DNA of 64,000 nt from Candidatus Bipolaricaulota bacterium (GTDB lineage: Bacteria; Patescibacteriota; Patescibacteriia; UBA11705; DATKZF01). Each line of letters begins with the position of its first letter. Within the stretch, counting starts at the first letter, position 1. The position numbers were made by a program, and so were the translations under genes. The notes beneath the pieces were generated by a model that was given only the letters and a program-made list of their open reading frames with translations, was not told the origin of the DNA and did not search any database. Location of the stretch: positions 292,651 to 356,650 of the forward strand of contig DATKZF010000003.1 in NCBI GenBank assembly GCA_035528115.1. The letters are read 5' to 3'. This document shows, piece after piece, positions 18,079 to 60,608 of this stretch.

Positions 18079-18081
18079 GTT

Positions 18082-19053: not shown

Positions 19054-19075
19054 AATTAGACAATAACCTTTTGTG

Positions 19076-19146: not shown

Positions 19147-19173
19147 AATCTCTTGCTGTTGCATTGCTGCTCC

Positions 19174-21941: not shown

Positions 21942-22010
21942 TGTTAGAGGGCTAATGTTAGGAATTACATCCACCTTTGGCCTTATGCTTGAGAAGATTG
22001 TATTTCGTAA

Positions 22011-22052
22011 CACTGTATTGAAAAAGCCCAATGGTCATGACCAAAGGGCTTT
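22011..22052 (-). terminator. Intrinsic terminator of the island-3 gene
   Basis: aaagccc...gggcttt hairpin followed by a T-run on the minus strand. Confidence 0.65.
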
Positions 22053-23735: not shown

Positions 23736-24053
23736 GCTGTCATCCTCCTGTTGTTGCGCATGATTGATATATCGATATGTCAAACTGCTGACTTATTATA
23801 CTAGAACAAAATCGTATTCTTGTCAATTCCCCAAATTATTTCAAAAGCTCTGCCATTTTACAATATGTATGACTGATTGGAAAGTAAAAGTATTACAAAA
23901 AAATGTCCCGATCAAGGACACTTTTTCTACCGATTCATGCCATTCTTCGCTTCGCGAAGAATGGGGGCACGGACCCACCTTCGTCAAGACTACGGCAAGC
24001 AGGCGGGATTTGCACCCATGCATAGCGGTTTTGTCCCGATAAATAAATAAATT

Positions 24054-30644: not shown

Positions 30645-30744
30645 CTTTACCACATTGATCTTTACAATAGAAAATTGATAGAAAGAAGTCCATTGTTTAC
30701 TTTTTTTCAGAGTTTTGACCAACTCTTTTCAAAATGGTCAAATT

Positions 30745-32231
<1,487 letters not shown>

Positions 32232-40430: not shown

Positions 40431-40439
40431 GTTTTTGAG

Positions 40440-40680
40440 ATTACGATATGTCCTGGGTCATGGATCACGTAACAATGAAGCATCGTTACTAATTACATTC
40501 ACTAAAAAGCTCTTTATTTGTATTGTTACAAATTACATTCATCAATGGCTTTAAACCTGAGAATCTTGTAATTAGTAACAAATTACCTAAAAGCTAAATA
40601 GTCGATTGTAATTCGTAACAGAAAGCTAAATAGAATCTTGTAATTCGTAACAAACCAATTATACAATTAATATTATAGCC
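40440..40680. repeat. Repeat region A of the TTGTAATTCGTAACA family, with about 2.5 tandem ~36-bp units
   Basis: Imperfect inverted copy of 56380..56600; tandem units aaagctaaatag..cttgtaattcgtaaca. Confidence 0.7.
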
Positions 40681-40757
40681 CATTTCAAACCTCCGAACAA
40701 GCCCGCCATGTAGATATTTTCAAACAAAAAAGAGGCGGAAATGGCCTCTTCTTCAAA

Positions 40758-43637: not shown

Positions 43638-44702
43638 TCATCTTTTCGCCGAGCCACGACTCTTTTTACTTGGCTTTTTTCGCTTTAATTTCTTCACGGT
43701 CTCCGGATACAGCTGATCTATAATCGCTCCCGCGGCATTGCGAGGTTTTCCGGAGTACGGTTCATGATGAATACTGAGCATTGGCGAATCATTGACTTCA
43801 ATAATGATATAATTTTTTTTGTTTGGCTTTTTGGTGACATCGGTTGTCAGATAATCGATCCCGCCAAAACCCAGACCGGGAATTGCTCTGATTACTTTCA
43901 CGGCCAATTTTTTCACTTCCGGATGAATATCTTCAGTCGAGTCATAACTGTCCCCGCCCGTGGATATATTGGAATTGGCTCTCAAAAAAATTTGCTCTCC
44001 TTTTTTTGGAATACAATCGAGATTCTTTTTTTGTTTTTTCAAATTCATTCTGACCGCCTCGTCAACTTTTATTTTAACCAGACTTTTTTCATGACTCATC
44101 CCCCTTCTGGTATCCATATTCTTTTCCTTAATCAAATCCTTTATCGTGTGAAAGCCGTCTCCCACCACATTGGCGGGCACTCGAAGCGTCGCGGCCACGA
44201 ATTTATCCTTCGTTGCCAATAAACGATACTCTTTGCCGAAAAACATTTTTTCCACGATAATTTTTTTAAATTTGGTGTTTTTGAATTCCGCCAAAGCCGC
44301 TCTGACCTTTTGATCGGAATTCAAATCAACAAAAACATGTTTTCCCTGAATGCCGCTCAAGGGCTTAATAACGACGGGAAATTTAATTTTATGACAAAAA
44401 CTTAATATTTCTCGACTGTCGCTATAATTAAAAATTTGTCCTTCAGACACGTTTATACCGGCTTTTTTGAAAAAAAACTTGGCCAATTGCTTGTTTTTTT
44501 GAATCCAATAAGCGATGCAATCCGTTTTAGATGTTCTCTGGCCAACGATTATTTCGCGATGTCCTTTATAATTCAATTCCAACAAACTGTCCTTGGCCAT
44601 CGGCCCCTCCGTAAAAATTTTATTTACCTCAATTTCCCTGTCTTCCGATTCTTTGGCGAGAAGATATGTGCTGGACTGTAAAAATTGCCACGGTTTTAAC
44701 AT
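43638..44702 (-). CDS. ATP-grasp domain protein (cyanophycin-synthetase/RimK-like ligase)
   Basis: FPVVIKPLSGIQGKHV; C-terminal IIIEVNDSP. Confidence 0.55.
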   Translation of the reverse strand: MLKPWQFLQSSTYLLAKESEDREIEVNKIFTEGPMAKDSLLELNYKGHREIIVGQRTSKTDCIAYWIQKNKQLAKFFFKKAGINVSEGQIFNYSDSREILSFCHKIKFPVVIKPLSGIQGKHVFVDLNSDQKVRAALAEFKNTKFKKIIVEKMFFGKEYRLLATKDKFVAATLRVPANVVGDGFHTIKDLIKEKNMDTRRGMSHEKSLVKIKVDEAVRMNLKKQKKNLDCIPKKGEQIFLRANSNISTGGDSYDSTEDIHPEVKKLAVKVIRAIPGLGFGGIDYLTTDVTKKPNKKNYIIIEVNDSPMLSIHHEPYSGKPRNAAGAIIDQLYPETVKKLKRKKPSKKSRGSAKR

Positions 44703-44739
44703 AGAGTTTGAATTTATTTTTTAAGGGAAATATCTTCAG

Positions 44740-45630
44740 CTACTTTTTCTCGCGATATACTTTTTCTAAAAACTTAATAATTCTATCCGCGATATTTATG
44801 CCGGTGACCAAAGACAATCTTTCAAAACCCGGGCAGCGATTGACCTCCAGTATATAAGGTTTGCCGTCCCGATCATAAATCAAATCCACCCCGGCAATGT
44901 CGGTATTGGCGGCTTTGGCCGCTCTGACGGCCAAGTCTTTTTGTTTTTTGCTCAAAACATGTTTTTGGCTGCGTTGTGCAAGCGGCACCCGATGATTTTT
45001 AAGATAACTCAATGTATAGCGCTTTATTGACCCGACAGATTCATTGCCGATAACAAAAACTCTGTAATAATGATCCGCCTCTATAATTTCCTGAATAAAA
45101 AAATCATTTATCTTGTGTTTGCTCAAAAATTTCAACAACTGATTATTGCTGTTCTCATTGAAAATATTTTTTCCATGCATGCCCTGAATATCCTTGACCA
45201 ATACCGGAAAAGGCAGTTTAACTCCGCTTTTCTTGAATTCTTTGATGTCGGAAAAATACCAACAGTCGGGGCAAGGCAGCCCATGATAGCTGAGCGCGGC
45301 ATAGCCGAACATTTTGTCGAATACATATACTTTGCGGTACAATTCACGATCAACCACTTCTTTGCCGCAACGCTTGAGGTATTTGGCAATGGTATGCGCT
45401 TTTTCCATATACGGATAAATGCCGCGGATCAAACAAATATCAAAGTCCCGGATGTCTTGCCTGCCGATCTTCACGATAAATTTTTTATCCTTTAAAACAA
45501 AACAAAAATCAACAATGGACGCCAGCTTAACCCGATGACCGCGAACTTTGACCGCTTTGGCCAGCGCTCGATTGGCATAATTTTCAGGTCCCACTATGAG
45601 TATTTTCATAATATTATTTAGACGGATCAA
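44740..45630 (-). CDS. RimK-family ATP-grasp ligase
   Basis: PVLVKDIQGMHGKNIF and GVDLIYDRDGKPYILEVN motifs. Confidence 0.75.
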   Translation of the reverse strand: MIRLNNIMKILIVGPENYANRALAKAVKVRGHRVKLASIVDFCFVLKDKKFIVKIGRQDIRDFDICLIRGIYPYMEKAHTIAKYLKRCGKEVVDRELYRKVYVFDKMFGYAALSYHGLPCPDCWYFSDIKEFKKSGVKLPFPVLVKDIQGMHGKNIFNENSNNQLLKFLSKHKINDFFIQEIIEADHYYRVFVIGNESVGSIKRYTLSYLKNHRVPLAQRSQKHVLSKKQKDLAVRAAKAANTDIAGVDLIYDRDGKPYILEVNRCPGFERLSLVTGINIADRIIKFLEKVYREKK

Positions 45631-47014
45631 CCAAAAATCGCTGCAAATCGCGGCGACCGATGATCGCCTGATAAGCCAGCTCTTTTCGACTGACGACCGA
45701 GACGCGGGTGTTAATATCGAAACCGGATAAATTAATGGTCACCGGCACTTCGATGCGGTAAGTGGCGCCGTGGCTGCTCAAGGTCTTGGCCACGGCCACG
45801 ATGTCGGGGTGTTTTTCCAATTCTTTGAAAACTTTTTTCGCGGACAGCTCCTCCATTTCTTCCCTGGTCAGGACGCTTTTGATGTTGAATGAATTGTAAT
45901 AATCAATCGCTTCTTGAAATCCCAGCTCAATGGCCAATTCTTCGTCAATCGCGGAAATACCCGCTCCGGTGTCTATCTTGGCTTCGATTTCAACCGCTTT
46001 GGTTTTATTCTTGCCTAAAATTTTAACTTGCTCAATAATGCCGACCACTTGTTTGCCGGAAATTTCTTCAATCTCTTGCTCCACGTCTCCGCCGAAAAGT
46101 TCTTTGGCCACCTTAATACCCTTGGCCACTGTTTTTATTTTCAAACCCTGCACTCGAAGCAAACGTTCTTTGAGCGGCGCCATATTGGCGATCTGAATGG
46201 ATAAGCCCGGATGCGCGTTCAATTCCAAAATAACCGGCCCCTTTTCCCGATCAATGGCCACGTCGACTCCAAGATAATTCAATTTGGTGGCTTGTTGCGA
46301 CTCAATGGCGATTTCCAAAATCTTGTTCCAAAAAGGAATTTTAATGCCACTCATCGGAAATCTCGTGCCCGGCAGATATTCGATCAATTTGTTATTTAAA
46401 ATGGCGCGAGTGGTAATTCCCGTAGTGATATCAATGCCCACGCCGATGCCGCCCATGTGCAGATTGGCTTTGCCTCCCGAATCTTTGGTGGGCAGCCGCA
46501 GCATGGACATGACCGGCACGCCGTTGAACACGATAATGCGGATATCGGGAATGCCCTTATACGCGTAAAGTTTAAAACTGGGATGAATCTTCAATCTCTC
46601 CTCGAAAAAAGCGATGTCTGACGCGTGGCTTTTCGAATAATCACCGTCCAAGATATTGCTGGCATGCTCTTTGATTTCATCCAAGGTGATTTCCCTGTCT
46701 TTTGACATGATCCAAACGCCGTTTCTCTTGCGACCGAAGGTGACGATAATGCCTTCTCCGCCGAGTCCCATGTTGGGCTTTAACACAAAACTTGAAGGCA
46801 AAAGATCCCAGTCGAAATTATACAATTCTTGACGGTCTGAAATCACGGCGATCAAATCCGCGACGGGCAGACCGACTTCAAACAAGACCTCTTTCGATAA
46901 AAGTTTGTTGTCCGCGATTTTAACGGCAGAAGATTTATTGTATCTTCTGACAAATTGCAGGTTCCGGGCGTTCATGCCCAAAATACCTTTACTTTTTTTC
47001 AGCATCTTCAACAT
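45614..47014 (-). CDS. Alpha-L-glutamate ligase-like ATP-grasp fused to a zinc-protease/retropepsin-like domain
   Basis: N-terminal sugar-transfer-associated ATP-grasp pattern; C-terminal IDTGAGISAIDEELA...RIEVPVT. Confidence 0.6.
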   Translation of the reverse strand: MLKMLKKSKGILGMNARNLQFVRRYNKSSAVKIADNKLLSKEVLFEVGLPVADLIAVISDRQELYNFDWDLLPSSFVLKPNMGLGGEGIIVTFGRKRNGVWIMSKDREITLDEIKEHASNILDGDYSKSHASDIAFFEERLKIHPSFKLYAYKGIPDIRIIVFNGVPVMSMLRLPTKDSGGKANLHMGGIGVGIDITTGITTRAILNNKLIEYLPGTRFPMSGIKIPFWNKILEIAIESQQATKLNYLGVDVAIDREKGPVILELNAHPGLSIQIANMAPLKERLLRVQGLKIKTVAKGIKVAKELFGGDVEQEIEEISGKQVVGIIEQVKILGKNKTKAVEIEAKIDTGAGISAIDEELAIELGFQEAIDYYNSFNIKSVLTREEMEELSAKKVFKELEKHPDIVAVAKTLSSHGATYRIEVPVTINLSGFDINTRVSVVSRKELAYQAIIGRRDLQRFLVDPSK

Positions 47015-48557
47015 TTTTTATAACCTTTCTAAATCTTATGTATTCGACCAATCTGATGCCGGCCCACTTGCCCAAAATCATATTGACGATAATGCACAAA
47101 AATATCACTTCGGGATAGCCGAGTAATATCGACTTGGTAAATTGCAAACTGGCGATCCAATAACAAAAGCTGGACAACACCAAAGTTTCCAGCGTCAGCA
47201 TGATCGCCGCCTTATTGCCTTTTTCAATTTGCACGGACACGAATTTTTCGGATAAAACAATGAGAATCAAAATCGGAAAAATGGAAATGGTGAGCATGCC
47301 GGCGTCTTTTATCATCGCGCCGCCAAGCAGCAAAGCGAAAATCGTTAAACTGACCAGGATCAAAATCAGCGCCATCCTGGGCAGATAAAGCAACCTTAAT
47401 TTTTTAGCCAGAATCCTGCCGATGCTGGCGATGGCGATAATAATGCCGAAAATAATCAAACCGTAAACAATGCCCGTGCCCAGAAACGATAAGGCGATGA
47501 TCGCGGGCGTATAAATGCCGAAGGCTTTAAATCCGATGAACTGCCGGCTGAATGATAAAATGGTGGCGATGACCGGCAAAACCAATAAAAGGTAAAGGGT
47601 GTTGATGGGCACGCCTTGATTGACCATGTAACTGATGGCGTAAGCCAAAAAATTCCAAGGCCGAAGCTGCTGTATTTCCCGCTGAGTATGAAGACCGATA
47701 ATCTGATACTCGATGTCGTCTTCTTTCAAATCGCGAAGCAATGAATCCAAATTAATAACCGTTACGGAGCTATTGATCGCGCTCTGGTCAGCCAAAACTA
47801 TAAATTGAGGTTCCACCAGATTGAACAATGTTTGCGCCAATCTGGAGGTGGAAGCGAATTTATTGGTTATGTTGATGATGACCTTGTTGGAAAAGCCGAA
47901 ATCGACCAAGCCCGTGCGGTCGGGAGACCCGGTGGCGCCCAACGCTTGCGCGGCGTCAATCATGGCATTGAGGCCGATATTGCCTTGCGTCCAAATAATA
48001 ATATTTTTCGCCTGTTTGATGTTTTCTTTTGATTCGATTATTTTTTGCGCCAACTCATTTTCCACGGCCAGGTCCAAATCCTTGGTTTCGTTTTTAATAT
48101 TCACGATCAAAATACCTTGGGTGCTGGAGATCATTTGCAGATTATTTATCTCTTCCGCGGAAATGGTGTGATCCGTGATTAAAATAATCAAATCTTTATC
48201 CACGGAAACAATAAATTGATCTACCGATTGTTCGTTGGTCAATTTATTTTGGAGAGTCAGGCTGGCTCGATAAAAACCCGGATTTTTGTAAGTGTAAACC
48301 GCTTCGCTGCCGGTCGCTCGTCCGTCATCGCCGAAATTCCAAATATATTCCACTTCCGAACCTTCGGGAACACTCGATCCGGCCGCTGAAAACAGCACCT
48401 GCCGGCCGACGACCACGTTACGGTCTCCGCCCGATACGGCTTTGAGGGGCACTTGCAATATTTCGCTTTGATTGTTTGTTTCAGCCGCGATCGCGGAATT
48501 TAATAACAGACCGCCGGCCATAAACGATAAAACCAACAAGGCTAAAAATTTTTTCAT
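46989..48557 (-). CDS. Secreted PKD-like domain fused to a 7TM membrane domain
   Basis: Signal peptide; VYTYKNPGFYRASLT PKD-like motif; seven C-terminal TM helices. Overlaps the ATP-grasp gene. Confidence 0.55.
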   Translation of the reverse strand: MKKFLALLVLSFMAGGLLLNSAIAAETNNQSEILQVPLKAVSGGDRNVVVGRQVLFSAAGSSVPEGSEVEYIWNFGDDGRATGSEAVYTYKNPGFYRASLTLQNKLTNEQSVDQFIVSVDKDLIILITDHTISAEEINNLQMISSTQGILIVNIKNETKDLDLAVENELAQKIIESKENIKQAKNIIIWTQGNIGLNAMIDAAQALGATGSPDRTGLVDFGFSNKVIINITNKFASTSRLAQTLFNLVEPQFIVLADQSAINSSVTVINLDSLLRDLKEDDIEYQIIGLHTQREIQQLRPWNFLAYAISYMVNQGVPINTLYLLLVLPVIATILSFSRQFIGFKAFGIYTPAIIALSFLGTGIVYGLIIFGIIIAIASIGRILAKKLRLLYLPRMALILILVSLTIFALLLGGAMIKDAGMLTISIFPILILIVLSEKFVSVQIEKGNKAAIMLTLETLVLSSFCYWIASLQFTKSILLGYPEVIFLCIIVNMILGKWAGIRLVEYIRFRKVIKNVEDAEKK

Positions 48558-50213: not shown

Positions 50214-50252
50214 CCCAAATGTTTCATGCAAAATATTTTCCCAAAAATAAAA

Positions 50253-51755
50253 ATGTCTCTTTTCTGGCAAACTATCATTGTTTTTTGTATCTCCTTGTTT
50301 TTATTTTCCCTGACCCAATTTCCCCACACGTTCTATGACCCGGACGGATTTTATCACGCCAAAATTTCCGAAACGATCGCCGAGCGCGGCCTTGTCAAAT
50401 CTTTTCCCTGGACGCAATTCGCCACGCTCAAAGACGGCTTTGTCGATCATCACCTCGGATTTCATCTGCTGATCGCGCCGCTAACCAAAATCTTCCCCTC
50501 GGAATACGCGCTCAAACTGGGCAACCTTTTCATCAATTCCGCTTTTGTCTCCGTATTTTTTCTTTTCCTCAAAAAAAATAAAATAAAATACTCCTGGCTG
50601 TTCACTTCATTTTTATTTCTAACCGCTCCGCTTTACGCCAGACTGAGCATGAATAAAGCCATTGGGTTGGCCCTGCTTTTGCTGATGTTTTTTATCTGGG
50701 CGCTTATGGCTGAAAAAAAATGGCCGTTGTTTTTCATCAGCGCTCTTTTTGTCTGCAGTTATGGCGGCTGGCCGATAAGCATTATCGTTTTAATTTGCTA
50801 TATCGTTGCCAGAATTCTTTTCCAAATAGTGGAAAATAAAAAAATGGATAAGAAATTAAAAAATCATTTACTCGGCGCCGCCTGCTTGACTTTGGCCGGA
50901 CTGGCGGCGGGCCTGGTGATCAATCCATATTTTCCGCAAAATCTGAATTTTTATTGGCAGCAAGTGGTTCAAATCGGCCTGATCAATTATCAAAATCAGC
51001 TCAACGTGGGCTCGGAATGGCTGCCTTATGATTTCATTACTTTGGCGGCCGGCACTTTTTTCCTCTGGGGCATTTTGATTTTTTCGCTGAAAGCGATTAT
51101 GGATCAAAAAGCAAAACTTAATTGGCGACACATTTTTCTGACCTTCTCTTTTATCATCTTTTTCGCCGTCACTTTGAAGTCGCGAAGGTATATCGAATAT
51201 TTCGCGCCATTTTTTATTCTCTACATCGCTTTTTTATCCCGTGAATTGGATTTGAAAAAATTGCTGGGAGGCCTCGGCGTCAAAATGAAATGGTTTTGCC
51301 TGTCTTTGACCGCTTTGTTGGCCGGACTGATCCTCGCCAATTTCAGCTCGACCATCCAAATATTTCAAACCAAGCACTCCGTTGACAAATTCAGCGGCGC
51401 CGCGGCTTGGCTGGCTGAAAACACGGCCGAAGGGTCAATTGTTTTTCACACCGATTGGGATGATTTTCCCATGCTGTGGTTTCACAATGACCGCAATTAT
51501 TATATCGGCGGCCTGGATCCGACATTCACCTATTTATTCAACCCGGAATTGTCGAAAAAATGGATGAGCATCTCTTCGGGCAGCCAAGCGGACGAACTTT
51601 ATCTAATAATTAAAAACGATTTTCAGGCAAACTATGTCTTTGTGGAGAAAAACAATCACGCGCTTTTTTTAAACAATTTGGAAAATAACTTTTTGGCTGA
51701 AAAAAAATTCGAAGACGCTGAAAGCGCAATTTTTCACCTTAAAAACAACGATTGA
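50253..51755 (+). CDS. Polytopic membrane protein, GT-C glycosyltransferase-like
   Basis: Multiple TM helices; start chosen at MSLFWQ. Confidence 0.5.
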   Translation: MSLFWQTIIVFCISLFLFSLTQFPHTFYDPDGFYHAKISETIAERGLVKSFPWTQFATLKDGFVDHHLGFHLLIAPLTKIFPSEYALKLGNLFINSAFVSVFFLFLKKNKIKYSWLFTSFLFLTAPLYARLSMNKAIGLALLLLMFFIWALMAEKKWPLFFISALFVCSYGGWPISIIVLICYIVARILFQIVENKKMDKKLKNHLLGAACLTLAGLAAGLVINPYFPQNLNFYWQQVVQIGLINYQNQLNVGSEWLPYDFITLAAGTFFLWGILIFSLKAIMDQKAKLNWRHIFLTFSFIIFFAVTLKSRRYIEYFAPFFILYIAFLSRELDLKKLLGGLGVKMKWFCLSLTALLAGLILANFSSTIQIFQTKHSVDKFSGAAAWLAENTAEGSIVFHTDWDDFPMLWFHNDRNYYIGGLDPTFTYLFNPELSKKWMSISSGSQADELYLIIKNDFQANYVFVEKNNHALFLNNLENNFLAEKKFEDAESAIFHLKNND

Positions 51756-53362
51756 ATCAAATGACCAAAAACATTTCGCAAATTATCAAAAGTTTTTCAA
51801 AAAAAGACTGGCTCTGTCTGTCTATTATTTCTTTGGTTTTGATTGCGATCGTTTCAATTACCTATATTTTCGGTTTGACTTCATCTGATGCCGATCATAT
51901 TTTCAACGGACGGCGCGCCACATCTCCCGGAGACACCTCGGTTTATTTTTCATACATCAATCAAGCGAAACAAGGCGACGGTTTTTTCATCAATCAATTC
52001 ACTTCCGAAAAAGACGAACTTAAAGTCTTCAATATCTTCTGGCTGATGGCCGGCAAATTCGCGGCCGTTTTCCGCCTGTCCGCGCCGGCAACCATGCTGG
52101 CGCTAAAAATTTTACTGGCGCCGATTTTTGTTTTATTTTGCTATGTCTTTTTGAGTTTGTTTTTTGAAAATAAACGCGTAAAGCGCCTCGCGCTGATTCT
52201 GATTTCATTTTCTTCCGGAGTCGGGCTTTGGTTCGGTTTTCTGAATGGAGAGCAAAATACTTTTTTGAAAGCGCCGATCGATCTGTGGGTGACGGAAAGT
52301 AATTTTTTCACTTCGTTTTTGCACTCGCCGCATTTCATTTTGGCCTGGACATTGCTTTTGATCGTTTTTTCTTTTTTCATTTTGGCCGTTCGAAACAATA
52401 ATTGGAAACAAAGCTTTCTGGCCGGCCTGACCGCGCTTTTTCTCTTTCAATTTCATCCCTATAATTTTCTGACGGTTTACGCGGTCTGCCTGACTTTCAC
52501 GATTTATGAAATTTTTCTTAAAAAAACATGGCGACCTTCGGTCCACTTTTTACTTCTGACCGTTGTTTCCGTTCCTTCCGTAATTTATCATTTTTTCACG
52601 CTTTCCGACACTCTCATCGCCGCGCGTTCCGCTCAAAACATCACCCTGACTCCCCCGCTCATTTACGTGGCTTTGGGCTTTGGAATATTTTTCCCTTTGG
52701 CGATTTGGGGCGTTTGGAAAATTTTCAAAAACAACATGGAAGACAAATATATTTTCCTTGTCATCTGGCTGTTGGTCGGTTTATTGCTGATATATTTTCC
52801 GGGTTTTCAATTTCAACGGCGCTTGCTTTTGGGTCTTCAAATTCCGATAATCATGTTGGCTTTCATCGGTCTTGGAAATTTCGTTGAAAAAACGGCTGAC
52901 AAAATAAAACGATCCAAACTGTCCGCCATGATCGCCGTGTATTTGGCCATGATTTTTATTTTGCCGACCTCTTTTTACCACCTTGCTTCCGATTTTTTAT
53001 ATTATTTCAATCACGAGCCTCTTTTCTATCAAACGTCCGAGCAAAAAAAAATCATTGAAGCAATAGAAGCGGACAATGGCCCGGTCAATATCATTATCTG
53101 CGAAGACATTCCTTTCGCCAATACTTTGCCGATTTATTTGCCGAATAAAATTTTTCTGGCTCACCTTCATGAAACGACTTTTTTCGAAAACAAAAAAAGC
53201 CTGCAAGCAAACTTTTTCAATCAAGCGATGACGCCGCTCGATGCTGAAAATTTTATTCGGAACAATTTTATCGAATATGTCATTTCAAAAAAACCGCTGC
53301 CTTATAATTTTCTGGAACCGATTATTGGCGGAGAAAAATATTTCTTATATCGAGTCAATTGA
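51752..53362 (+). CDS. Polytopic membrane protein, GT-C glycosyltransferase-like
   Basis: Multiple TM helices; 4-bp overlap with the upstream gene. Confidence 0.5.
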   Translation: MNQMTKNISQIIKSFSKKDWLCLSIISLVLIAIVSITYIFGLTSSDADHIFNGRRATSPGDTSVYFSYINQAKQGDGFFINQFTSEKDELKVFNIFWLMAGKFAAVFRLSAPATMLALKILLAPIFVLFCYVFLSLFFENKRVKRLALILISFSSGVGLWFGFLNGEQNTFLKAPIDLWVTESNFFTSFLHSPHFILAWTLLLIVFSFFILAVRNNNWKQSFLAGLTALFLFQFHPYNFLTVYAVCLTFTIYEIFLKKTWRPSVHFLLLTVVSVPSVIYHFFTLSDTLIAARSAQNITLTPPLIYVALGFGIFFPLAIWGVWKIFKNNMEDKYIFLVIWLLVGLLLIYFPGFQFQRRLLLGLQIPIIMLAFIGLGNFVEKTADKIKRSKLSAMIAVYLAMIFILPTSFYHLASDFLYYFNHEPLFYQTSEQKKIIEAIEADNGPVNIIICEDIPFANTLPIYLPNKIFLAHLHETTFFENKKSLQANFFNQAMTPLDAENFIRNNFIEYVISKKPLPYNFLEPIIGGEKYFLYRVN

Positions 53363-55094
53363 TCTTAAGCGGTTCGGTCAAATTTTCTATTTTTGAAAAA
53401 TTATTTTCGACGAAATATAAATTGTTCAAATACAAGCCGCCTTCGACTTCAACCGAATAGGCAAAAATTTCAGCGTCTTTTTCCCGCGAAACCGTCAATT
53501 CATCAGTAAACGGCCAAAACAGCCGTTTTTTTATGGTTTTCCCATCAATTTGATATTCAATCAGCATGGGCTTTTTATCTTCGCTTGCCTCAAAATTTTC
53601 AAGGTTGATTTTTACAAAATTAGCCTCATCAAAGGCAACCTCCTGTCCCGATTTTCCGTAAATCAAATATCTGTCTTTATTTTCCAGCAAAACAAGGCCG
53701 TTTTTTTTGATTTTTTCCAGCAACTCATCGCCACCGCTAGAATAATATTTTTGATAATACGGCCGATTGTCTTTTTGCAAATAAAAAGTCAGCAATTCGT
53801 CCTGATCAATGATCAAGTAATCCAACCCGGGCGTCTCGTATTTTTGATCGGAAAATTGTCGGTGGCCCCAAAAAATTCTGGTCGTTGAATAGACAACGTT
53901 TTTTTCGGACAAATAAACGGCCAAAGACGCGGGCGCGGCTACAATGGAATTTTCAATGGCCGTGGCCGGCGGCGCCGCCGCCGCCGTAGAGACGCGCCGC
54001 GGCGCGTCTCTACCCGCCCGCGCGAACGCGGGCGGCCACGGCCCGAAAAACCAATTTAAATAAATAATGGCCGCGATCAAAACAAACGGCGCCATTTTTT
54101 TGTAGGCGTTAAAAATAAAAATTTTGCCCGGCCGGTCATTTTTTAAAACCTCGATCAAAGCCAAATAGCAGGGAATAAAAAGCGGCGCGCCATAATGCAG
54201 ATTGGCGACCGGCGCGCCGAAGGCCAAGGCGATTTGCAAATAATAAAAAAGGCCGATAACCAGATATCTGGGACGCAGGAGCGGCAAAAAAACCAACGGC
54301 AAGAAAATCTGCACCAAAAGCTCCAGTTGTCCGAGGCTGAAAACGCGGCCAAGAACCGTGTGCCAATCAAAATAGACCAAAAATTTGCTGGCCTCGCCGT
54401 TAAAATGCTTTATCGTCAGCCAACCGATAATTAAAAACAATAGACTAGAAAAAATAGTCGTCAAAACCTTGGGAAAAAACAAGGCTTTTTGGAAACCGAC
54501 AATCCTTCTTTTTTCCAAAAAGATAAACAGAGCAAAGCCGAGTAGCAAAATTCCCATATCTTCCCTGATCAGCAAAGTCAAAAACAAAAAAACATAATAA
54601 CCGGCTTGATTGTTTTCAAGATAAAAATAGTACAGCCAAAAAAAGAAAAAGAACAAAAACGGCAAAAAGTGAAATTCGAACAAGTTCATGCCGATGATGA
54701 ACGGATTGAATAAATAGGCGATCAAAACCAAAATTGTTTTATTGAAATTTAAACTCTTTCGACAAATCAAATACAACGGCCAAGCTCCGAGGCCGATAAA
54801 CAACGTTTGCAAAAAGAGCAACAAAATCGGTGATTGTAAAAAATGATACAGCGGATAAAATATAAAAAACAAAAAGCTGAAATGGTCCGCAAAATACTGC
54901 GCTCCCTGCAAAGGCACGAACAAAAAATTGCCCGCGTCAAGACTTTGGAACGCCTGAAAAAAAATGGTCAAGTCAAGACCGTTATAAAGATGGTTGTGAT
55001 ATTTGAAAAGGCAAACCGAAAAAACAGCGGCCACGTAAACCGTGATTGAGCAAATTAGAATCACTTTGCGTTTCATATGACTTAATGATATCAA
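53355..55094 (-). CDS. Polytopic membrane protein (DUF2079-like) carrying an in-frame GC palindrome insertion
   Basis: N-terminal TM bundle; palindromic element at 53961..54040 encodes GRDAPRRVSTAAAAPPATA in frame. Confidence 0.5.
   Translation of the reverse strand: MISLSHMKRKVILICSITVYVAAVFSVCLFKYHNHLYNGLDLTIFFQAFQSLDAGNFLFVPLQGAQYFADHFSFLFFIFYPLYHFLQSPILLLFLQTLFIGLGAWPLYLICRKSLNFNKTILVLIAYLFNPFIIGMNLFEFHFLPFLFFFFFWLYYFYLENNQAGYYVFLFLTLLIREDMGILLLGFALFIFLEKRRIVGFQKALFFPKVLTTIFSSLLFLIIGWLTIKHFNGEASKFLVYFDWHTVLGRVFSLGQLELLVQIFLPLVFLPLLRPRYLVIGLFYYLQIALAFGAPVANLHYGAPLFIPCYLALIEVLKNDRPGKIFIFNAYKKMAPFVLIAAIIYLNWFFGPWPPAFARAGRDAPRRVSTAAAAPPATAIENSIVAAPASLAVYLSEKNVVYSTTRIFWGHRQFSDQKYETPGLDYLIIDQDELLTFYLQKDNRPYYQKYYSSGGDELLEKIKKNGLVLLENKDRYLIYGKSGQEVAFDEANFVKINLENFEASEDKKPMLIEYQIDGKTIKKRLFWPFTDELTVSREKDAEIFAYSVEVEGGLYLNNLYFVENNFSKIENLTEPLKIN
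53961..54040. repeat. GC-rich nested palindromic element (copy 3), located inside a CDS
   Basis: ggccgtggcc...gccgtagagacgcgccgcggcgcgtctctac...ccgcccgcgcgaacgcgggcgg...ggccacggcc. Confidence 0.8.
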
Positions 55095-55155
55095 ACATCA
55101 ACCAAACAAAAAAGCGCCCGCCAAAGACGGAACGCTTTCTTTTTCGCTTTCGTTA

Positions 55156-55572
55156 TTAAGCTCCCAAAGTCACATTGACCAATTCACCGACCACATAACT
55201 GGAAATGGCATAAGCCAACAAAACGATGACCAAGCCGATGATGCCGTTGATGATCCAGTCTTTGGCTTTTTTAACCTTTTCATCGGCTCCGCCGGCGGTC
55301 ATGTACAAAAAGCCTCCGTACAAGATGACCACGAGCAAAATAATGCCCATGAAAGTCAAAACGATTCTGATGATGTCGCCGATCACTACCGGCAAAGATC
55401 TTGACTCCGCTCCGAACTGATCGCCCGTCGTTCCCAATGTCCCGATAATGTCAGGCGTGCCCGCGGCGCCGGTGCTGTCGGCTAAAACCACTGCCGGCGT
55501 AACCAGCAACGCGATGGTTGCGAGCGCCAGTAAAGCCGGGACGAATTTTTTCAATGAAATTTTCGTACGCAT
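55156..55572 (-). CDS. VirB2/TrbC-like pilin-family protein (paralog 1)
   Basis: Signal peptide; two hydrophobic helices separated by the YMTAGG loop; KVKKAKDWIINGIIGL. Confidence 0.6.
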   Translation of the reverse strand: MRTKISLKKFVPALLALATIALLVTPAVVLADSTGAAGTPDIIGTLGTTGDQFGAESRSLPVVIGDIIRIVLTFMGIILLVVILYGGFLYMTAGGADEKVKKAKDWIINGIIGLVIVLLAYAISSYVVGELVNVTLGA

Positions 55573-55610
55573 AAATTTTTTAATTTATTGATATTTAAGT
55601 TAATTTTATT

Positions 55611-56000
55611 TTATGCCGCCGGGGGCAAACTGCCGCCCGTCGCTTCAATCATGCTTCTTACCACATAGTCTGAGATGGCGTAAGCCGATAGTACTATCGC
55701 TAAGCCGATCATGGCATTGATAATCATTTCCTTAGCTTTTTTTACCTGATTTGCATCCCCGCCGGCAGTCATCCACATGATGCCCGCATAAATTAATAAT
55801 AATAGTAAAATTACACCCAGCAAAGTCAAGATCACTCTAATTATTCTGCCCACGATGACCGCGATGCTCTCGGACTGAAGCCCTGCCTGATCGGCGGTTT
55901 GTTCTAATCCGGTCGCAATGGCCAGGGTTGGCTGAACGCAACTTGAAAAAAATATAATCGCCACGGACAATATAGTTATAATATATAAAAAATGATTCAT
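55611..56000 (-). CDS. VirB2/TrbC-like pilin-family protein (paralog 2)
   Basis: Signal peptide; IYAGIMWMTAGG; KKAKEMIINAMIGL. Confidence 0.6.
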   Translation of the reverse strand: MNHFLYIITILSVAIIFFSSCVQPTLAIATGLEQTADQAGLQSESIAVIVGRIIRVILTLLGVILLLLLIYAGIMWMTAGGDANQVKKAKEMIINAMIGLAIVLSAYAISDYVVRSMIEATGGSLPPAA

Positions 56001-56005
56001 ATTTA

Positions 56006-56374
56006 CTATGTTATACCTCCAGGCTGAATCTGCGAAAAAATATATTTTAGTATAGCATATGAAGCCAGCACTAAAATCAAACCAATTATCCCGTTAATTA
56101 TTATTGTTCTGGCTTTTTGCACTTTGGATTTAGCCCCCACTTGCAGGGTTATTGATCCGCCGGCGGTCATCCACAAAACTCCGCCGTAAATAATCATAAC
56201 CAAAAAAAGTACTCCAACAAATCCCAATGCATAATTCAAGATATTGCCGATAATTTCAGGCAACGCCTTGTCCGTCTGCAATTCCGCCTGACCCGCCGCC
56301 GTATTCAGTCCTTCTTGCAAGGCGCCGGCTTTGGCGCAGGAAATACCGACTAGTTCTTTTATCCATTGTCTCAT
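56006..56374 (-). CDS. VirB2/TrbC-like pilin-family protein (paralog 3)
   Basis: IIYGGVLWMTAGG; QKARTIIINGIIGL; no clear signal peptide. Confidence 0.55.
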   Translation of the reverse strand: MRQWIKELVGISCAKAGALQEGLNTAAGQAELQTDKALPEIIGNILNYALGFVGVLFLVMIIYGGVLWMTAGGSITLQVGAKSKVQKARTIIINGIIGLILVLASYAILKYIFSQIQPGGIT

Positions 56375-56379
56375 ATCGG

Positions 56380-56600
56380 TTACAAATTTACAAATCTTTT
56401 ACTAATGCACAAATTGTTACACGCTATATGTTACGAATTACAATATCCTATTTAACTTTCAGGTTATTTGTTACTAATTACAAGATTCTCAGGCTTAAGG
56501 CTATAGGTGAATGTCCCAATGGGATCACTTCGTGATACTTCGTAACAATACAAATAAAGAGCCATTTAGTGAATGTAATTCGTAACATCTTCTCGATTCA
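56380..56600. repeat. Repeat region B of the TTGTAATTCGTAACA family (inverted relative to region A)
   Basis: Reverse complement aligns to 40485..40600. Confidence 0.7.
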
Positions 56601-56675
56601 GCCATCTACAAAGATAAATGACTGAACCAAGAAGGGCAGAGTTTCCCAGCTGGGACGCAAACCCTGCCTCCTCTT

Positions 56676-57056
56676 TTATTCCGCGATTGTGGCTGAAACC
56701 AAGGAATTGATGACGAAAGTGGTAATGGCATATGCGGCCAAGATAATGGCCAAACCGATAATGCCGGAGATAAGCCACTGTCTGGCTGCCGTGACCTTTT
56801 CATCGCTGCCTCCGGCGGTCATGTATTTGAAGCCGCCGATTAAAACGATGACAATAGCCACCACACCCAAAAATCCCAACGCCGCTTTGATGATATCTCC
56901 GATCACTTCTCTTAAATCTCGAGTTGAATAACCAACGCTGTTTTCAATCGCGTTGAATCCGAAATCGATTTGAGCTGAAGCGAGCAAAGGCACGGCCGCC
57001 ATGAAAAGAACGGCCAATACCATGGTAGCGGTAGTAAACTTTTGAATTTTGTTCAT
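56676..57056 (-). CDS. VirB2/TrbC-like pilin-family protein (paralog 4)
   Basis: Signal peptide; LIGGFKYMTAGG; ARQWLISGIIGL. Confidence 0.6.
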   Translation of the reverse strand: MNKIQKFTTATMVLAVLFMAAVPLLASAQIDFGFNAIENSVGYSTRDLREVIGDIIKAALGFLGVVAIVIVLIGGFKYMTAGGSDEKVTAARQWLISGIIGLAIILAAYAITTFVINSLVSATIAE

Positions 57057-57084
57057 ATTTTTTATTACAAGATTACGAAATTTG

Positions 57085-57152
57085 CATACGAGATTGTACG
57101 GATTGGAATTATCTCGTATAATCTGTACACAAATCTGTAATCTCGTAAAAAC
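57085..57152 (+). repeat. Palindrome-rich ~70-nt element (copy 2)
   Basis: acgagattgtacggattgg...aatctgtaatctcgtaa, about 85% identical to 16248..16320. Confidence 0.7.
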
Positions 57153-57184
57153 TAAATTTATTCGACCTTTTATTAATTGTTAAA

Positions 57185-57973
57185 TTATTGAAATTGGGTT
57201 TGACATTTGGCGCGGCATTCTTTGGAGTCATTGGCGAGAAGGGCCATGCAATCCTTATATTGCTCATCTTGCTCGGGCTCATTGTATTCTTGAAGACAAT
57301 GATTTTCACCGTTGGTGTCCATTTGCTGGCAATCGGACAGGCAATCGCCTCGTTGCTTTTCGACGGAACCCAGTCCGCTGGTGAGCGGGGTTATTATCGC
57401 CGAAACAATAGCATAGCTCGAAAAAACCACAATCAAGCCCAGGATGGACCAAACCAAGGTACCGCGAGCCTTGCTCGCTTTTTCCGCCGCGCCACCCGAA
57501 GTCATATACATAATGCCTCCGTACACGAACATGGCCAAGGCGACCGAACCGATGATGCCAAGCAGGGCTTTGATGATTTTTCCCGCGATAGTGGGAACAT
57601 CCCCGCTAATCAATTCTCCCTTGATCGGCTCTTTATTTAAAAACGAATCCAGCTTTTGAATGGTCTGATTCAGCCCTCCTTCAGAGGCGGGTGTCGCCGC
57701 GGTTTCCGCCGTAGAGGAGGTGGGTTTGCAATAGGTCAGGCAAGTCGTTGAATCGGGCTGCGAACTGCAGGCATCCTGACTTAATAAATCCACGTCGACG
57801 TCCCCACAATAACAAACAGGGGCGTTGCCTGCGCCGCAAGCCGCGCAAATTTTTGCGCAATCTCCGACGGCGTTTTCGCAACTGGCGCAAAAACCGTCAG
57901 CCAGCGCGCTCGACGCGAAGCCAAGCGATAAAATCGCGCAAAAAAAGATGATTGAAAAAAGCTTAAACTTCAT
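57185..57973 (-). CDS. Pilin-family core embedded between Cys-rich N- and C-terminal extensions (262 aa)
   Basis: Signal peptide; 12 Cys in CASCENAVGDCAKICAACG...CYCGD; core VYGGIMYMTSGG; C-terminal 6-Cys region. Confidence 0.6.
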   Translation of the reverse strand: MKFKLFSIIFFCAILSLGFASSALADGFCASCENAVGDCAKICAACGAGNAPVCYCGDVDVDLLSQDACSSQPDSTTCLTYCKPTSSTAETAATPASEGGLNQTIQKLDSFLNKEPIKGELISGDVPTIAGKIIKALLGIIGSVALAMFVYGGIMYMTSGGAAEKASKARGTLVWSILGLIVVFSSYAIVSAIITPLTSGLGSVEKQRGDCLSDCQQMDTNGENHCLQEYNEPEQDEQYKDCMALLANDSKECRAKCQTQFQ

Positions 57974-57978
57974 ATTTA

Positions 57979-58332
57979 TTATCCTTGGAGCGCGCTTAAA
58001 ACGAATTTAATGATGACCCCGGCGCCCAAGATCAAAGCCAGACCGATTACCGACGTTGATAAGACTTTTTTGGCTTTGGACACCGTGTCCGAAGAGCCGC
58101 CGGAAAAAATATACATGAACCCGCCGATCACGAACATCAACAAGGCGATGGACCCACTCAGTCCCAAAATAATGCCGGCCACGTTGGCCATAAGATTTTC
58201 AACCGAACCCAGATTGCACTCCGTGGCGTCGCCCAAACATTCTTGCGGCACCAGAGTCGGCAGAGCGGCCATGACCGGACAGGCCACGAGCAGAATCAAT
58301 ATTGGCATTAATATTTTTTTCATAATTCTCAA
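57979..58332 (-). CDS. VirB2/TrbC-like pilin-family protein (paralog 6)
   Basis: Signal peptide; VIGGFMYIFSGG; SKAKKVLSTSVIGL. Confidence 0.55.
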   Translation of the reverse strand: MRIMKKILMPILILLVACPVMAALPTLVPQECLGDATECNLGSVENLMANVAGIILGLSGSIALLMFVIGGFMYIFSGGSSDTVSKAKKVLSTSVIGLALILGAGVIIKFVLSALQG

Positions 58333-58333
58333 A

Positions 58334-59704
58334 TTATTCTTTCCAAGTCAGCTTTATCCTCTGCGCGGCCAGGTCGATCGCGTCCTTGATTTTCTCACCG
58401 CTTAAAACATCATTTATTAAATCGGCAAACACCGATTCGGCGGCCGCGGAATCTTTGCCTCGATACCAGCTCTGAGCCGTCAGCAATTGATCCGCGAAAA
58501 CATCCAAGTCCGGATCATTGAGCTGTTCGTTGATCAGCGCCCTTAACGCCGTGGGGCGCTTGCTCGATGCTAAATATTTTCTGGCTTCATCCGGTGAGGT
58601 GATGAATTGAATGAAGTTCCAGGCGTGATTTACATTTTTGGTTTTTTTGGATACGGTTTCCACCCAATAATTGGCGTAATTGGTGCGATTGTCTTCATAT
58701 ATTTGAGGAGTTCCGGCGATGTCGTAATTCAATTTCGGCGCTCGAGAATCTATAACCGGAATATGGTAAGCATACCCGAAAAAATAAGCGGTCTGCCCGG
58801 TAATGAAAGCATCCAGCGAATTGGGCATGTCTTCGTTCCAAGTGTAAAACCCGCTGTCTATTTGAGAAAAACCCGTATAAAAAGTCAAAGCTTCCTGTCC
58901 GGGCGGCAATTGCGAGGTCGAGCCGGCAGGTTTTTGATTGAATAAAACATTGCCTTGCTTGTCCGCCATGACCGCGCGATTTTGCATCATCAACAGAGAC
59001 AAAATATCAAAAGATCTGACAATATTGTTGGCCGTGCCCAGAGCCACTCCCGAAATCAAAATATTTCCATCCGAATCTTTTTGGGTCAGTTGTTGCGCTT
59101 GGCTGATGAAATCCTCCCAATTTCTCGCCGGCTGGGCAATGTTCGCGTTATTTAACAAATCGCGATTATAGAACAAAACCAAGGTGTCCAAACTGATCGG
59201 CAGACCAAAGATCCGCTCGACCCCGTCCTGCGTCCAAATCACGTCTTGAGTCACCACTTCCGGAAAAATCTTGGGCGCGTCTTTGACGGCCAAAGAAGTT
59301 TTTACTTCATTGATCACGCTTTCTTTTTTTCTGATATCGCCTTCCGTTATCTTTCTGGCCACCTGCGTTTGAGCCGGCAGAGGGGAAATCAAGGTCTGAT
59401 ATTTATTCACCCACGTATTGTGTATGGAATAAATATCCGGTCCCCGATCCTGCGCGAAAGCCTCGATCAATTCTTTTTCATATTCTTCAAATCTGAATTT
59501 ACGGTAATTGATGGTGACATTGGGATAAATCGCTCGATAATCGTTGATTAATGTCCTAATATCGTTCGGTTCTTCCCAAACGCCCCAATATTCGAGCACC
59601 ACGGACTCATAAGAAACTGCCGGCGCGGATCCGCAAGACAGACCGGTGGTCAACAAAAACAATAATATCAAAAAAATAACGCTGGCTTTTATTTTTATTC
59701 TCAT
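58334..59704 (-). CDS. ABC transporter substrate-binding lipoprotein (family-1 solute-binding, sugar type)
   Basis: Lipobox LSCGS; length and composition typical of a sugar-binding SBP. Confidence 0.65.
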   Translation of the reverse strand: MRIKIKASVIFLILLFLLTTGLSCGSAPAVSYESVVLEYWGVWEEPNDIRTLINDYRAIYPNVTINYRKFRFEEYEKELIEAFAQDRGPDIYSIHNTWVNKYQTLISPLPAQTQVARKITEGDIRKKESVINEVKTSLAVKDAPKIFPEVVTQDVIWTQDGVERIFGLPISLDTLVLFYNRDLLNNANIAQPARNWEDFISQAQQLTQKDSDGNILISGVALGTANNIVRSFDILSLLMMQNRAVMADKQGNVLFNQKPAGSTSQLPPGQEALTFYTGFSQIDSGFYTWNEDMPNSLDAFITGQTAYFFGYAYHIPVIDSRAPKLNYDIAGTPQIYEDNRTNYANYWVETVSKKTKNVNHAWNFIQFITSPDEARKYLASSKRPTALRALINEQLNDPDLDVFADQLLTAQSWYRGKDSAAAESVFADLINDVLSGEKIKDAIDLAAQRIKLTWKE

Positions 59705-59726: not shown

Positions 59727-60608
59727 TTATTTAATTGTTTTTTTCAAAAATGCCAAAAATTCTTTTCTCAAGCTCGCATTTTTCAAGCCGAAATTCACAT
59801 TGGCTCTCAGATAGCCGTGCTTATTGCCGCAATCATAGTACTCGCCTTCATATTCTAGCGCGTAGCCATCTTCTTCTTTCAATAAATCGTTAAAAGCGTC
59901 AGCCAGCCAGATTTCGCCGCCTTTGCCCGGCTTGGTATTTTCCAATTTTTCAAAAATTTTCTCGGACAAAACATATCTCATCCCCAAAATCGCCAAGTTC
60001 GACGGCGCGCTCGCGAGCGAAGGTTTTTCCACGGTTTTTTTTATTTTGTGCAATTTGCCGATCGAGGAAATCGGGTCCACAATGCCGTATCTGTCCACCA
60101 ATTTTTTATCAACCTTTTGCACGCCCACGTAATTGCCCGGATGTTTTTTATAACTTTGCAAAAGTTGCTTCATGGCCGGGACTTTGCTGTCGATGATGCT
60201 GTCGCCGTCGGAAAAAACAAACGGCTCATCGCCCACGATTTCTTTGGCCATCAGGAGAGCGTGGCCGTTGCCGAGAGGTTTGTTTTGCCTGACGTAAACG
60301 AATTTGGCCATGGAAGAAATTTTCCTGACCTCGGCCAATTCTTCTTTCTTGCCCTTTTCCTCCAATTGATATTCCAATTCAAACGACGGATCAAAATGAT
60401 CCTCAATCGCGCGTTTGGTTCTGCCGGTGATAAAAATAATTTCTTCAATGCCTGACGCCACCATTTCCTCAACAATATATTGAATAACGGGTTTGTCCAC
60501 GACCGGCAGCATTTCTTTCGGCTGGGCGATGGTGGCCGGCAAAAACCTGGTGCCGAAGCCCGCGACCGCGATAACCGCTTTTCTGATTGGCTTCATACGC
60601 TGTTTCAA
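59727..60608 (-). CDS. galU: UTP--glucose-1-phosphate uridylyltransferase
   Basis: KAVIAVAGFGTRFLPATIAQPKEMLPV signature. Confidence 0.85.
   Translation of the reverse strand: MKQRMKPIRKAVIAVAGFGTRFLPATIAQPKEMLPVVDKPVIQYIVEEMVASGIEEIIFITGRTKRAIEDHFDPSFELEYQLEEKGKKEELAEVRKISSMAKFVYVRQNKPLGNGHALLMAKEIVGDEPFVFSDGDSIIDSKVPAMKQLLQSYKKHPGNYVGVQKVDKKLVDRYGIVDPISSIGKLHKIKKTVEKPSLASAPSNLAILGMRYVLSEKIFEKLENTKPGKGGEIWLADAFNDLLKEEDGYALEYEGEYYDCGNKHGYLRANVNFGLKNASLRKEFLAFLKKTIK

Follow-up and report, generated by a model that had tools for sequence, protein, structure and literature searches.

Six divergent VirB2/TrbC-type pilin paralogs form the tail of a conserved galU–SBP–pilin-array unit in a Patescibacteria genome

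Tandem arrays of VirB2-like pilin genes are an established feature of Patescibacteria. A survey of 3,035 Patescibacteria genomes yielded 2,474 VirB4 detections, and 441 VirB2 arrays of 2–11 genes were counted in 383 assemblies, with a mean identity of 25% and a maximum of 54% (PMC12102498). In that survey, an array consists of at least two PF18895 or PF04956 genes that lie in tandem or one gene apart and share low mutual identity. Of the Patescibacteria assemblies with VirB4, 1,948 encode VirB2-like pilins as well; the pilin genes are found near virB4 in 1,135 of these and apart from it in ∼40% (Quiñonero-Coronel et al. 2025, PMC12102498). Southlakia epibionticum contains six essential VirB2-like pilins within a type IV secretion system (T4SS) cluster (PMC10633639; PMC12857230). 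The role of the T4SS and the pilin arrays in Patescibacteria has been described as 'completely unknown' (PMC11665869), and only one species has been examined in this respect, in which it proved essential. Here, an array of six consecutive minus-strand pilin genes (55156–58332) was analyzed in a 64-kb stretch of contig DATKZF010000003.1, which is referred to below as the window.

The initial annotation took the array as novel, but such arrays had already been described in Patescibacteria (PMC12102498, PMC12857230, PMC10633639). The window array, with six tandem genes, low pairwise local identities and a Patescibacteria host, falls within the published definition. The computed identities (27–48%) are as low as first reported, with a slightly wider range than the 30–40% given then. 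The ORF listing places the six open reading frames (ORFs) at the coordinates initially assigned, but the total comprises five short proteins and one 262-residue protein, not six short ones plus a long one. The array resembles those of S. epibionticum ML1 (SEML1_0006-0019) and N. lyticus TM7x ('Sec secreted array') in its tandem low-identity PF18895/PF04956 genes and in its chromosomal location in a reduced-genome bacterium of the candidate phyla radiation (CPR), and it shares the gene count of six with S. epibionticum. The S. epibionticum array is located inside the T4SS cluster, whereas the array in the window and those of the examined ABY1-type relatives are detached from T4SS genes and joined to a galU–SBP unit (SBP, solute-binding protein). 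ABY1 is the GTDB class to which the host and its relatives are provisionally assigned.

The VirB2/TrbC pilins of Gram-negative bacteria (Agrobacterium VirB2, RP4 TrbC and F TraA) have the same combination of a signal peptide, two hydrophobic helices and a basic loop. They differ from the window pilins in several respects: the window host is a monoderm, five of its six pilins score below the TrbC threshold, no VirB4, VirB5 or VirB6 gene adjoins its array, one member lacks a signal peptide and another carries ∼180 extra, predicted extracellular residues. The solved F and T pili are lipid-bound extracellular polymers, and none of the solved pilins is detectably similar to the window pilins by sequence or fold search. 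Mbov_0395 and MMCAP2_0565 from integrative and conjugative elements (ICEs) of Mollicutes are likewise small two-helix pilin-like proteins of a wall-less or monoderm lineage. However, the Mollicutes protein is encoded by a single-copy gene inside an ICE, whereas the window genes form a chromosomal array and score below the curated cut-off of that family.

The pilins are numbered 1–6 along the direction of transcription, from position 1 (57979–58332) to position 6 (55156–55572). All six ORFs exceed the gathering score of PF18895 (T4SS_pilin; 26.6 bits) with 33.5–42.9 bits and E-values of 5e-11 to 4e-8. Position 1 scores 34.4 bits, and public pipelines assign the same family to the same genes. 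The gathering score of PF04956 (TrbC/VirB2; 27.9 bits) is exceeded only by position 1 (31.8 bits), which is the most TrbC-like member. Positions 3 (23.1 bits) and 2 (16.8 bits) remain below the cut-off, and the other three pilins give no match; one member besides position 1 reaches an E-value of 9e-5 with the TrbC profile. The NCBIfam model NF045849 (Mbov_0395 pilin-like conjugal transfer protein) matches three paralogs at E-values of ∼1e-8 over its entire length of 80 positions, although the best score of 33.6 bits does not reach the cut-off of 40. The 262-residue protein is annotated as a pilin by NCBI. The profile search thus agrees with the initial assignment to the VirB2/TrbC-type T4SS pilin family, with six of six members above the PF18895 threshold and one of six above that of PF04956. 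A local hidden Markov model (HMM) of the pilin core detects these six ORFs and no other in the window, which indicates that the array is not a chance occurrence.

The six pilins share a layout in which two hydrophobic helices are separated by a Gly-rich turn and a Lys/Arg-rich loop, as observed by hydropathy and loop charge. The turn sequences are YMTAGG, WMTAGG, WMTAGG, YMTAGG, YMTSGG and YIFSGG, and the basic-loop sequences are KVKKAK, QVKKAK, KVQKAR, KVTAAR, KASKAR and TVSKAK. The second helix contains the common motif ..IIGL.IVL..YAI, and all three motifs appear in the alignment of the six as they were first described. AlphaFold2 (AF2) models of positions 2 and 3 exhibit helical hairpins with pLDDT values of ∼85–96 over the pilin core, consisting of residues 126–158 and 163–229 in position 2 and residues 48–79 and 85–125 in position 3 (pLDDT of 82 for the model).

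These features bear on whether the six proteins are generic two-helix membrane proteins that match the profile through hydrophobic composition and have no pilin-related function. The short profiles (71 positions) consist largely of transmembrane helices, weak matches to unrelated membrane families (DUF898 and DctQ) are observed, and the structure searches are non-specific. Nevertheless, a spurious match is highly improbable: it is effectively refuted by the profile scores, with all six proteins above the curated threshold and E-values as low as 5e-11. Moreover, the paralogs share a non-hydrophobic signature (Y/W-M-T-A/S-G-G and K-x-K-A-K/R), the TrbC profile provides an independent match, and NF045849 (below its cut-off) and the NCBI pilin annotation provide further ones.

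A signal peptide, initially attributed to all of the pilins, is present in five of the six. The 122-residue pilin at position 4 has two hydrophobic helices and a 7-residue loop insertion but lacks a hydrophobic N-terminal segment by hydropathy. With an N-terminus of ∼40 residues that has to cross the membrane without a signal peptide, it may differ in topology from the other pilins. Position 1 combines its signal peptide with a C-x6-C pair in the mature N-terminus. Its true start is probably ATG 58323, from which public assemblies call a 114-residue protein; TTG 58332 is only the start of the mechanical ORF.

The six paralogs were compared with those of related loci obtained from a genome-collection scan with the six-pilin alignment, in which the pilin ORFs were counted by a six-frame HMM search. 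At least three pilin ORFs, forming tandem arrays of 3–11, are present in 65 of the 80 loci. One locus, L005 (Patescibacteria MAG187, a metagenome-assembled genome (MAG); JBMORT010000002.1), is syntenic with the window over ∼14 genes. The BLAST matrix between the two arrays is essentially diagonal, with 147, 134, 181, 99, 118 and 97 bits at positions 1–6 and off-diagonal values mostly of 40–90 bits; position 6 is effectively tied (97 bits versus 99 bits off the diagonal). Positions 1–3 are also diagonal against a Falkowbacteria array. The L005 orthologs are 67, 38, 70, 43, 48 and 49% identical at positions 1–6; the corresponding values of the SBP and GalU are 67 and 74%. Positions 1 and 3 are therefore as constrained as their housekeeping neighbors, and position 3 is the most conserved paralog, with the highest score of the six. 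The L005 orthologs also retain the oddities of their counterparts, including the missing signal peptide of position 4 and the C-x6-C pair of position 1. This ordered positional orthology, together with the inherited oddities, points to specialized, non-redundant subunits rather than interchangeable or recent copies. It argues for an ancient array that is positionally orthologous to that of another Patescibacteria MAG, and the one-to-one match bears out the initial proposal of diversification instead of recent duplication.

The same comparison weighs on a variation system, in which the six genes would encode alternative major pilins for different host strains or for defense evasion, in analogy to the VirB2 proteins of Bartonella and Anaplasma. 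Variation has been suggested by the authors of PMC12102498, and it would fit the low paralog identity (27–48%), the array size of 5 to 11 among relatives and the faster evolution of positions 2 and 4–6 (38–49% ortholog identity). However, L005, with an SBP identity of only 67%, contains a separate ortholog for every position in unchanged order, and the architectural differences (the signal peptide of position 4 and the Cys modules of position 2) are themselves conserved. In addition, no sign of recent duplication or gene conversion is observed, and the DNA repeats between the genes are only 60–74% identical over the core. A variation system is thus considered unlikely.

One candidate explanation for position 4, a pseudogene truncated by the repeat-bearing 301-nt gap upstream, was rejected because the L005 ortholog is equally short behind a gap of 88 nt. 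In another related locus (L086:11436–13633), two genes interrupt the array just past the SBP gene, one of the 23S_rRNA_IVP family and one for a Y1_Tnp transposase (IS200-type), which indicates that mobile elements do insert within pilin arrays.

The 262-residue pilin at position 2 contains Cys residues on both sides of its core. The N-terminal Cys residues are found at positions 12 (in the signal peptide), 29, 32, 39, 43, 46, 54, 56, 69, 78 and 82, and the C-terminal ones at positions 211, 215, 226, 242, 253 and 257. The six C-terminal Cys residues of the initial annotation were confirmed, whereas its 18 N-terminal ones were a miscount for 10 in the mature protein (11 with the signal peptide). 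The mature protein has an even number of Cys residues (16). A profile of the protein and its L005 ortholog retrieves a small Cys-rich subfamily (P0003–P0007), and a homolog search with the single sequence finds only the protein itself and one core-only match. In P0003–P0007, all six Cys residues of the C-module are conserved within the motif CLxxC…C…C…CRxxCxxxFQ, and the N-module varies in length and stays Cys-rich. The C-x3-C … C-x3-C spacing with one inner pair suggests a helical hairpin stapled by three disulfides, with predicted pairs of residues 211 and 257, 215 and 253, and 226 and 242. In the AF2 model, the second core helix extends to residue 229 and is followed by a return helix (residues 236–261) with pLDDT values of 84–95; the N-module is not confidently modeled (pLDDT below 50). 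Because the basic loop would be located inside the cell, both Cys modules are predicted to be extracellular, and a role of the Cys-rich pilin as an adhesin or tip is plausible.

Related arrays frequently carry other Cys-rich N- or C-terminal extensions (e.g. C-x8-C-x21-C-x4-C-x7-CC) at their upstream end, and the decorated pilin thus appears to be a recurrent design that is not peculiar to one genome. In 13 of the 80 loci (L012, L013, L014, L019, L021, L032, L045, L046, L058, L069, L073, L074 and L082), the array is replaced by a pair of proteins, each with an N-terminal signal peptide and a T4SS_pilin domain. The two proteins have sizes of about 550–780 and 1,360–3,470 residues, several of them being cut by the locus end. 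The L013 pair (7904–9832 and 9836–19954) contains Big_5/TIG immunoglobulin (Ig)-like domains beyond the pilin domain. None of the 13 loci has an SBP gene upstream. The giant pairs look like adhesin-like ectodomains that are anchored by a pilin core.

The pilin array is the tail of a conserved unit that consists of galU, an SBP_bac_1 lipoprotein gene and the pilin genes. The GalU assignment is at the equivalog level (TIGR01099, 338.6 bits versus a cut-off of 326.8; Pfam NTP_transferase), and a galU homolog likewise lies upstream, in the same orientation, in 40 related loci and in L084–L086. The SBP matches SBP_bac_1 (75.9 bits; threshold of 26) and SBP_bac_8 (66.6 bits), and its closest relatives in the PDB are sugar-binding proteins (E-value of 4e-14). 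Its family comprises 1,186 clusters at E≤1e-30, and nearly all of 54 SBP homologs contain a hydrophobic segment at the N-terminus with a conserved Cys residue at its end. Of the 55 arrays with at least 1.5 kb of upstream sequence, 52 are directly preceded by an SBP homolog in the same orientation, and the gaps between the two are mostly −10 to +10 nt, overlaps included. Conversely, reverse look-ups from SBP homologs revealed galU–SBP followed by 7–9 T4SS_pilin genes in three of three cases, one of which is a probably complete 886-kb genome. In the window, galU and the SBP gene are separated by 22 nt, the SBP gene abuts pilin 1, pilins 1 and 2 are 5 nt apart, and these genes look co-transcribed. 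No ABC permease or ATPase gene adjoins the SBP gene, whose neighbors in the window are galU and the pilins, and no recurrent permease-like family flanks the 54 homologs. In the searchable literature, no description was found of the linkage to the SBP, of the orthology by position or of the Cys-rich and giant extensions.

The arrays tend to be located among envelope-glycan genes (DUF2079, Wzy_C O-antigen-ligase-like, Polysacc_synt, LytR_cpsA_psr, MGDG synthase and galU), as seen at 50226–55094 of the window and in the flanks of L022, L084, L085 and others. Wzy_C-family enzymes include pilin O-glycosyltransferases, and their presence near the arrays makes pilin glycosylation a possibility.

The reading favored here, with moderate confidence, is that the array encodes Sec-inserted VirB2-like hairpins that a distant VirB4 machine would assemble into a hetero-oligomeric filament or conduit of fixed subunits, with the SBP as a functional partner. 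In the membrane, each pilin would form a hairpin whose basic loop faces the cell interior and whose two termini are exposed on the outside; the pilins would then be extracted and polymerized into a pilus-like filament or a cell-wall-spanning conduit. The likely motor would be of the VirB4 type and belong to a monoderm-like T4SS with its genes at another site of the genome; the model for it is Saccharibacteria, in which an equivalent array of six pilins is part of the essential T4SS cluster. The paralogs would function as fixed, specialized subunits and not as interchangeable variants. Position 3 would likely be the major subunit, as it is the most conserved pilin, follows its own upstream gap and precedes a conserved downstream hairpin, and position 1 would form a second highly constrained component. 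Position 2 would be a decorated subunit that displays disulfide-stapled modules outside the cell, with a variable Cys-rich N-module and a C-module in which a conserved twin-CX3C helical hairpin continues the second core helix. The putatively co-transcribed SBP lipoprotein would most likely cooperate with the filament, by recognizing glycans on the host surface or by capturing substrates.

The proposed arrangement has parallels in type IV pili and chaperone-usher operons, where divergent paralogs also occur in a fixed order with one conserved candidate major subunit, which here has its own flanking hairpin, and where larger decorated subunits could be adhesins. The fold and the assembly machinery are unrelated, and the likeness is an analogy only.

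Several observations weigh against the favored reading. No match to VirB4, VirD4, VirB6 or any other T4SS family was found by Pfam among the ORFs of the window (roughly 180 residues or more), as the initial annotation had stated for VirB4 and VirD4. Likewise, no T4SS component was found within ±10 kb of ∼80 related loci, in which the recurrent ORF families and the Walker-A ORFs of 450–1100 residues were checked by Pfam. The recurrent families of the flanks are YchF, HisRS, Wzy_C, PGI, LytR, MGDG synthase, PNPase and LeuRS, and the VirB4/VirD4 searches yielded only housekeeping proteins (YchF, EngA, ABC-F, FtsK, UvrA, DnaA, RecG and one T2SSE). With no T4SS gene nearby, the link to a T4SS is drawn from homology and from another class (Saccharimonadia). 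Structure searches with the models give generic helical hairpins, neither VirB2 nor TraA; a Foldseek search of the 262-residue model against the PDB produced insignificant long-helix matches only (BAR domains and 14-3-3; best E-value of 0.74), and the six-pilin profile gave one spurious match against the PDB sequences (E-value of 1.1). Position 3 is a candidate major subunit on the grounds of conservation and gene spacing only. The sigma-70-like sequence in its upstream gap (TTAACA-17-TAAATT, 57183–57155; 9 of 12 positions) is no better than the shuffled expectation, which the match counts of the promoter scan do not exceed either. Furthermore, pili have yet to be observed in any member of the Patescibacteria, and only a 'potential to elaborate conjugative pili' has been described (PMC12857230).

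The lack of nearby T4SS genes led the initial annotation to call the pilins orphan, which is an over-reading of a 64-kb window given that its genes are also found on a public (ENA) contig of 438 kb and that the pilin is recorded on contigs of up to 763 kb. VirB4 is widespread in the phylum, and pilins are often distant from virB4 (PMC12102498). The observations on the flanks are also compatible with a T4SS-independent envelope device, in which the pilin hairpins and the SBP, possibly with galU-dependent glycans, would form an independent surface or membrane assembly, such as a sugar-capturing fiber or channel, that requires no VirB4. The near-universal adjacency of SBP and array (52 of 55 and three of three) with tight or overlapping junctions, the SBP without an ABC permease or ATPase neighbor, the T4SS genes never seen within ±10 kb of related arrays in the checked flanking ORFs and the neighborhoods rich in envelope-glycan genes (galU, Wzy_C, LytR and DUF2079) would suit such a device. 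It is nonetheless rated as unlikely. No member of the VirB2/TrbC superfamily is known to work without a VirB4-type machine. Moreover, the homologous Saccharibacteria array is located inside an essential T4SS cluster, VirB4 is nearly ubiquitous in the phylum with T4SS genes often dispersed, and conserved adjacency demonstrates linkage, not mechanism. An unlikely, more far-reaching proposition is that the ABY1-type galU–SBP–array functions by itself in contacting the host or capturing nutrients. The SBP would partner a hetero-oligomeric filament of six non-redundant subunits, among them disulfide-armored decorated pilins, possibly without a classical T4SS. If true, this architecture would have no counterpart among known T4SSs, and the SBP would be a receptor or a component of the tip or base.

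The features of the unit and of the gaps within the array are listed in Table 1. The stem-loop that directly follows pilin 3 (−26.1 kcal/mol, z −2.9) has a counterpart in L005 (−23.9 kcal/mol, z −4.0) and may be a partial terminator or an RNA-stabilizing hairpin. The gap between pilins 3 and 4 contains an exact 15-nt inverted repeat (56428–56442/56574–56588) and a 33-nt tandem. It also carries copies of a dispersed intergenic motif, TGTTACGAATTACA, which has 13 matches in the window with at most 3 mismatches (1.9 expected). The sites (40483–40653, 56428–56588, 21955–22013, 7823–7837 and others) are often ∼40 nt apart and occur in both orientations. Longer blocks (ATTACATTCACTAAAnnGCTCTTTATTTGTATTGTTAC) are common to the gap between SMC and PBP (40431–40757) and that between pilins 3 and 4. 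The corresponding L005 gap is only 88 nt long and lacks the dispersed repeat. The repeat looks like an element of the repetitive extragenic palindrome (REP) or miniature inverted-repeat transposable element (MITE) kind, or a repeated operator. An Rfam scan of the intergenic gaps gave nothing near any gathering score.

Table 1. Coordinates of the galU–SBP–pilin-array unit, the modules of the Cys-rich pilin and the intergenic features
Feature	Coordinates	Strand	Remarks
galU, UTP--glucose-1-phosphate uridylyltransferase, first gene of the unit	59727..60608	-	TIGR01099
SBP, family-1 extracellular solute-binding protein, predicted lipoprotein	58334..59704	-	…TTGLSC↓G
Pilin position 1	57979..58323	-	114 aa from ATG 58323; mechanical ORF to TTG 58332, 117 aa
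Pilin position 2	57185..57973	-	262 aa; PF18895 41.3 bits at aa 126-193
Signal peptide of position 2	aa 1-25	-	
Cys-rich N-module of position 2	aa 26-~119, nt 57617-57898	-	10 Cys
Pilin core of position 2	aa ~120-199, nt 57377-57616	-	
6-Cys C-module of position 2	aa 200-262, nt 57188-57376	-	C-x3-C-x10-C-x15-C-x10-C-x3-C
Intergenic region upstream of pilin 3	57057..57184	-	128 nt; weak promoter-like match
Pilin position 3	56676..57056	-	126 aa; PF18895 42.4 bits
Stem-loop directly 3' of pilin 3	56629..56675	-	RNA fold; no clean T-run
Rest of the gap (301 nt) that separates pilins 3 and 4	56375..56628	.	dispersed intergenic repeat copies
Pilin position 4	56006..56374	-	122 aa; PF18895 34.0 bits
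Pilin position 5	55611..56000	-	129 aa; PF18895 33.5 bits
Pilin position 6, final array gene	55156..55572	-	138 aa; PF18895 42.9 bits
Terminator-like hairpin then T-run, after pilin 6	55115..55131	-	terminator scan and sequence

The closest genome matches of the pilins all belong to Falkowbacteria, Magasanikbacteria, Uhrbacteria or the 'Patescibacteria group', and the SBP homologs are named Patescibacteria, Parcubacteria, Falkowbacteria or Uhrbacteria. Based on these relatives and the L005 synteny, the host is treated as a Patescibacterium of the Falkow-/Magasanik-/Uhrbacteria type. NCBI lists the MAG as 'Candidatus Bipolaricaulota bacterium', a name that is probably wrong, as the gene content, the synteny and every close homolog indicate a Patescibacterium. 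Many related GTDB representatives are titled 'uncultured Gammaproteobacteria bacterium', which is a placeholder.

The window is ordinary chromosome with 10 tRNAs and genes for PolA, SMC, PBP1, RuvC, YebC, TrmD, S16 and similar housekeeping proteins. The 16S rRNA gene (30744–32229, plus strand) is followed by a tRNA cluster (Val, Ile, Phe, Pro and Gly), and the 23S–5S pair (10985–14164, minus strand) is unlinked to it and has the opposite orientation. At 3,022 nt, the 23S match is longer than the 2,925 positions of the model, suggesting small insertions. A holA-like ORF (18082–19164) gave no exact record in a search for contigs that encode it. A 393-residue ORF at 782–1963 (plus strand), which is assigned to PF09620 (Cas_csx3) in the public record, is located in a patch of 58.5% GC (1–2000) that exceeds the window average by ∼14 points. 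A second high-GC patch (56.7% versus ∼44%) contains the gene for a 571-residue PEGA-domain protein (22068–23783, minus strand). At 43638–48557 (minus strand), a membrane protein with PKD and 7TM_transglut domains is followed by three ATP-grasp (RimK/ATPgrasp_ST) genes, one of which has a weak Zn_protease tail, in what looks like a peptide-ligase-type cassette. This PKD/ATP-grasp cassette is also kept downstream of the L005 array.

The array adds no new kind of element to those already described in Patescibacteria, and the SBP linkage, the positional orthology and the decorated subfamily are modest new observations. The conservation of the paralogs as fixed, individual subunits sharpens the open question of the array's role. 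The linkage to an orphan sugar-binding lipoprotein and galU spans many lineages, and the pilin core is used repeatedly as an anchor for Cys-rich or giant Ig-domain ectodomains. The candidate major subunit, the target of the SBP, which may be the filament or a host glycan, and the decorated pilins as putative adhesins would provide testable handles on how epibionts touch or feed on their hosts.

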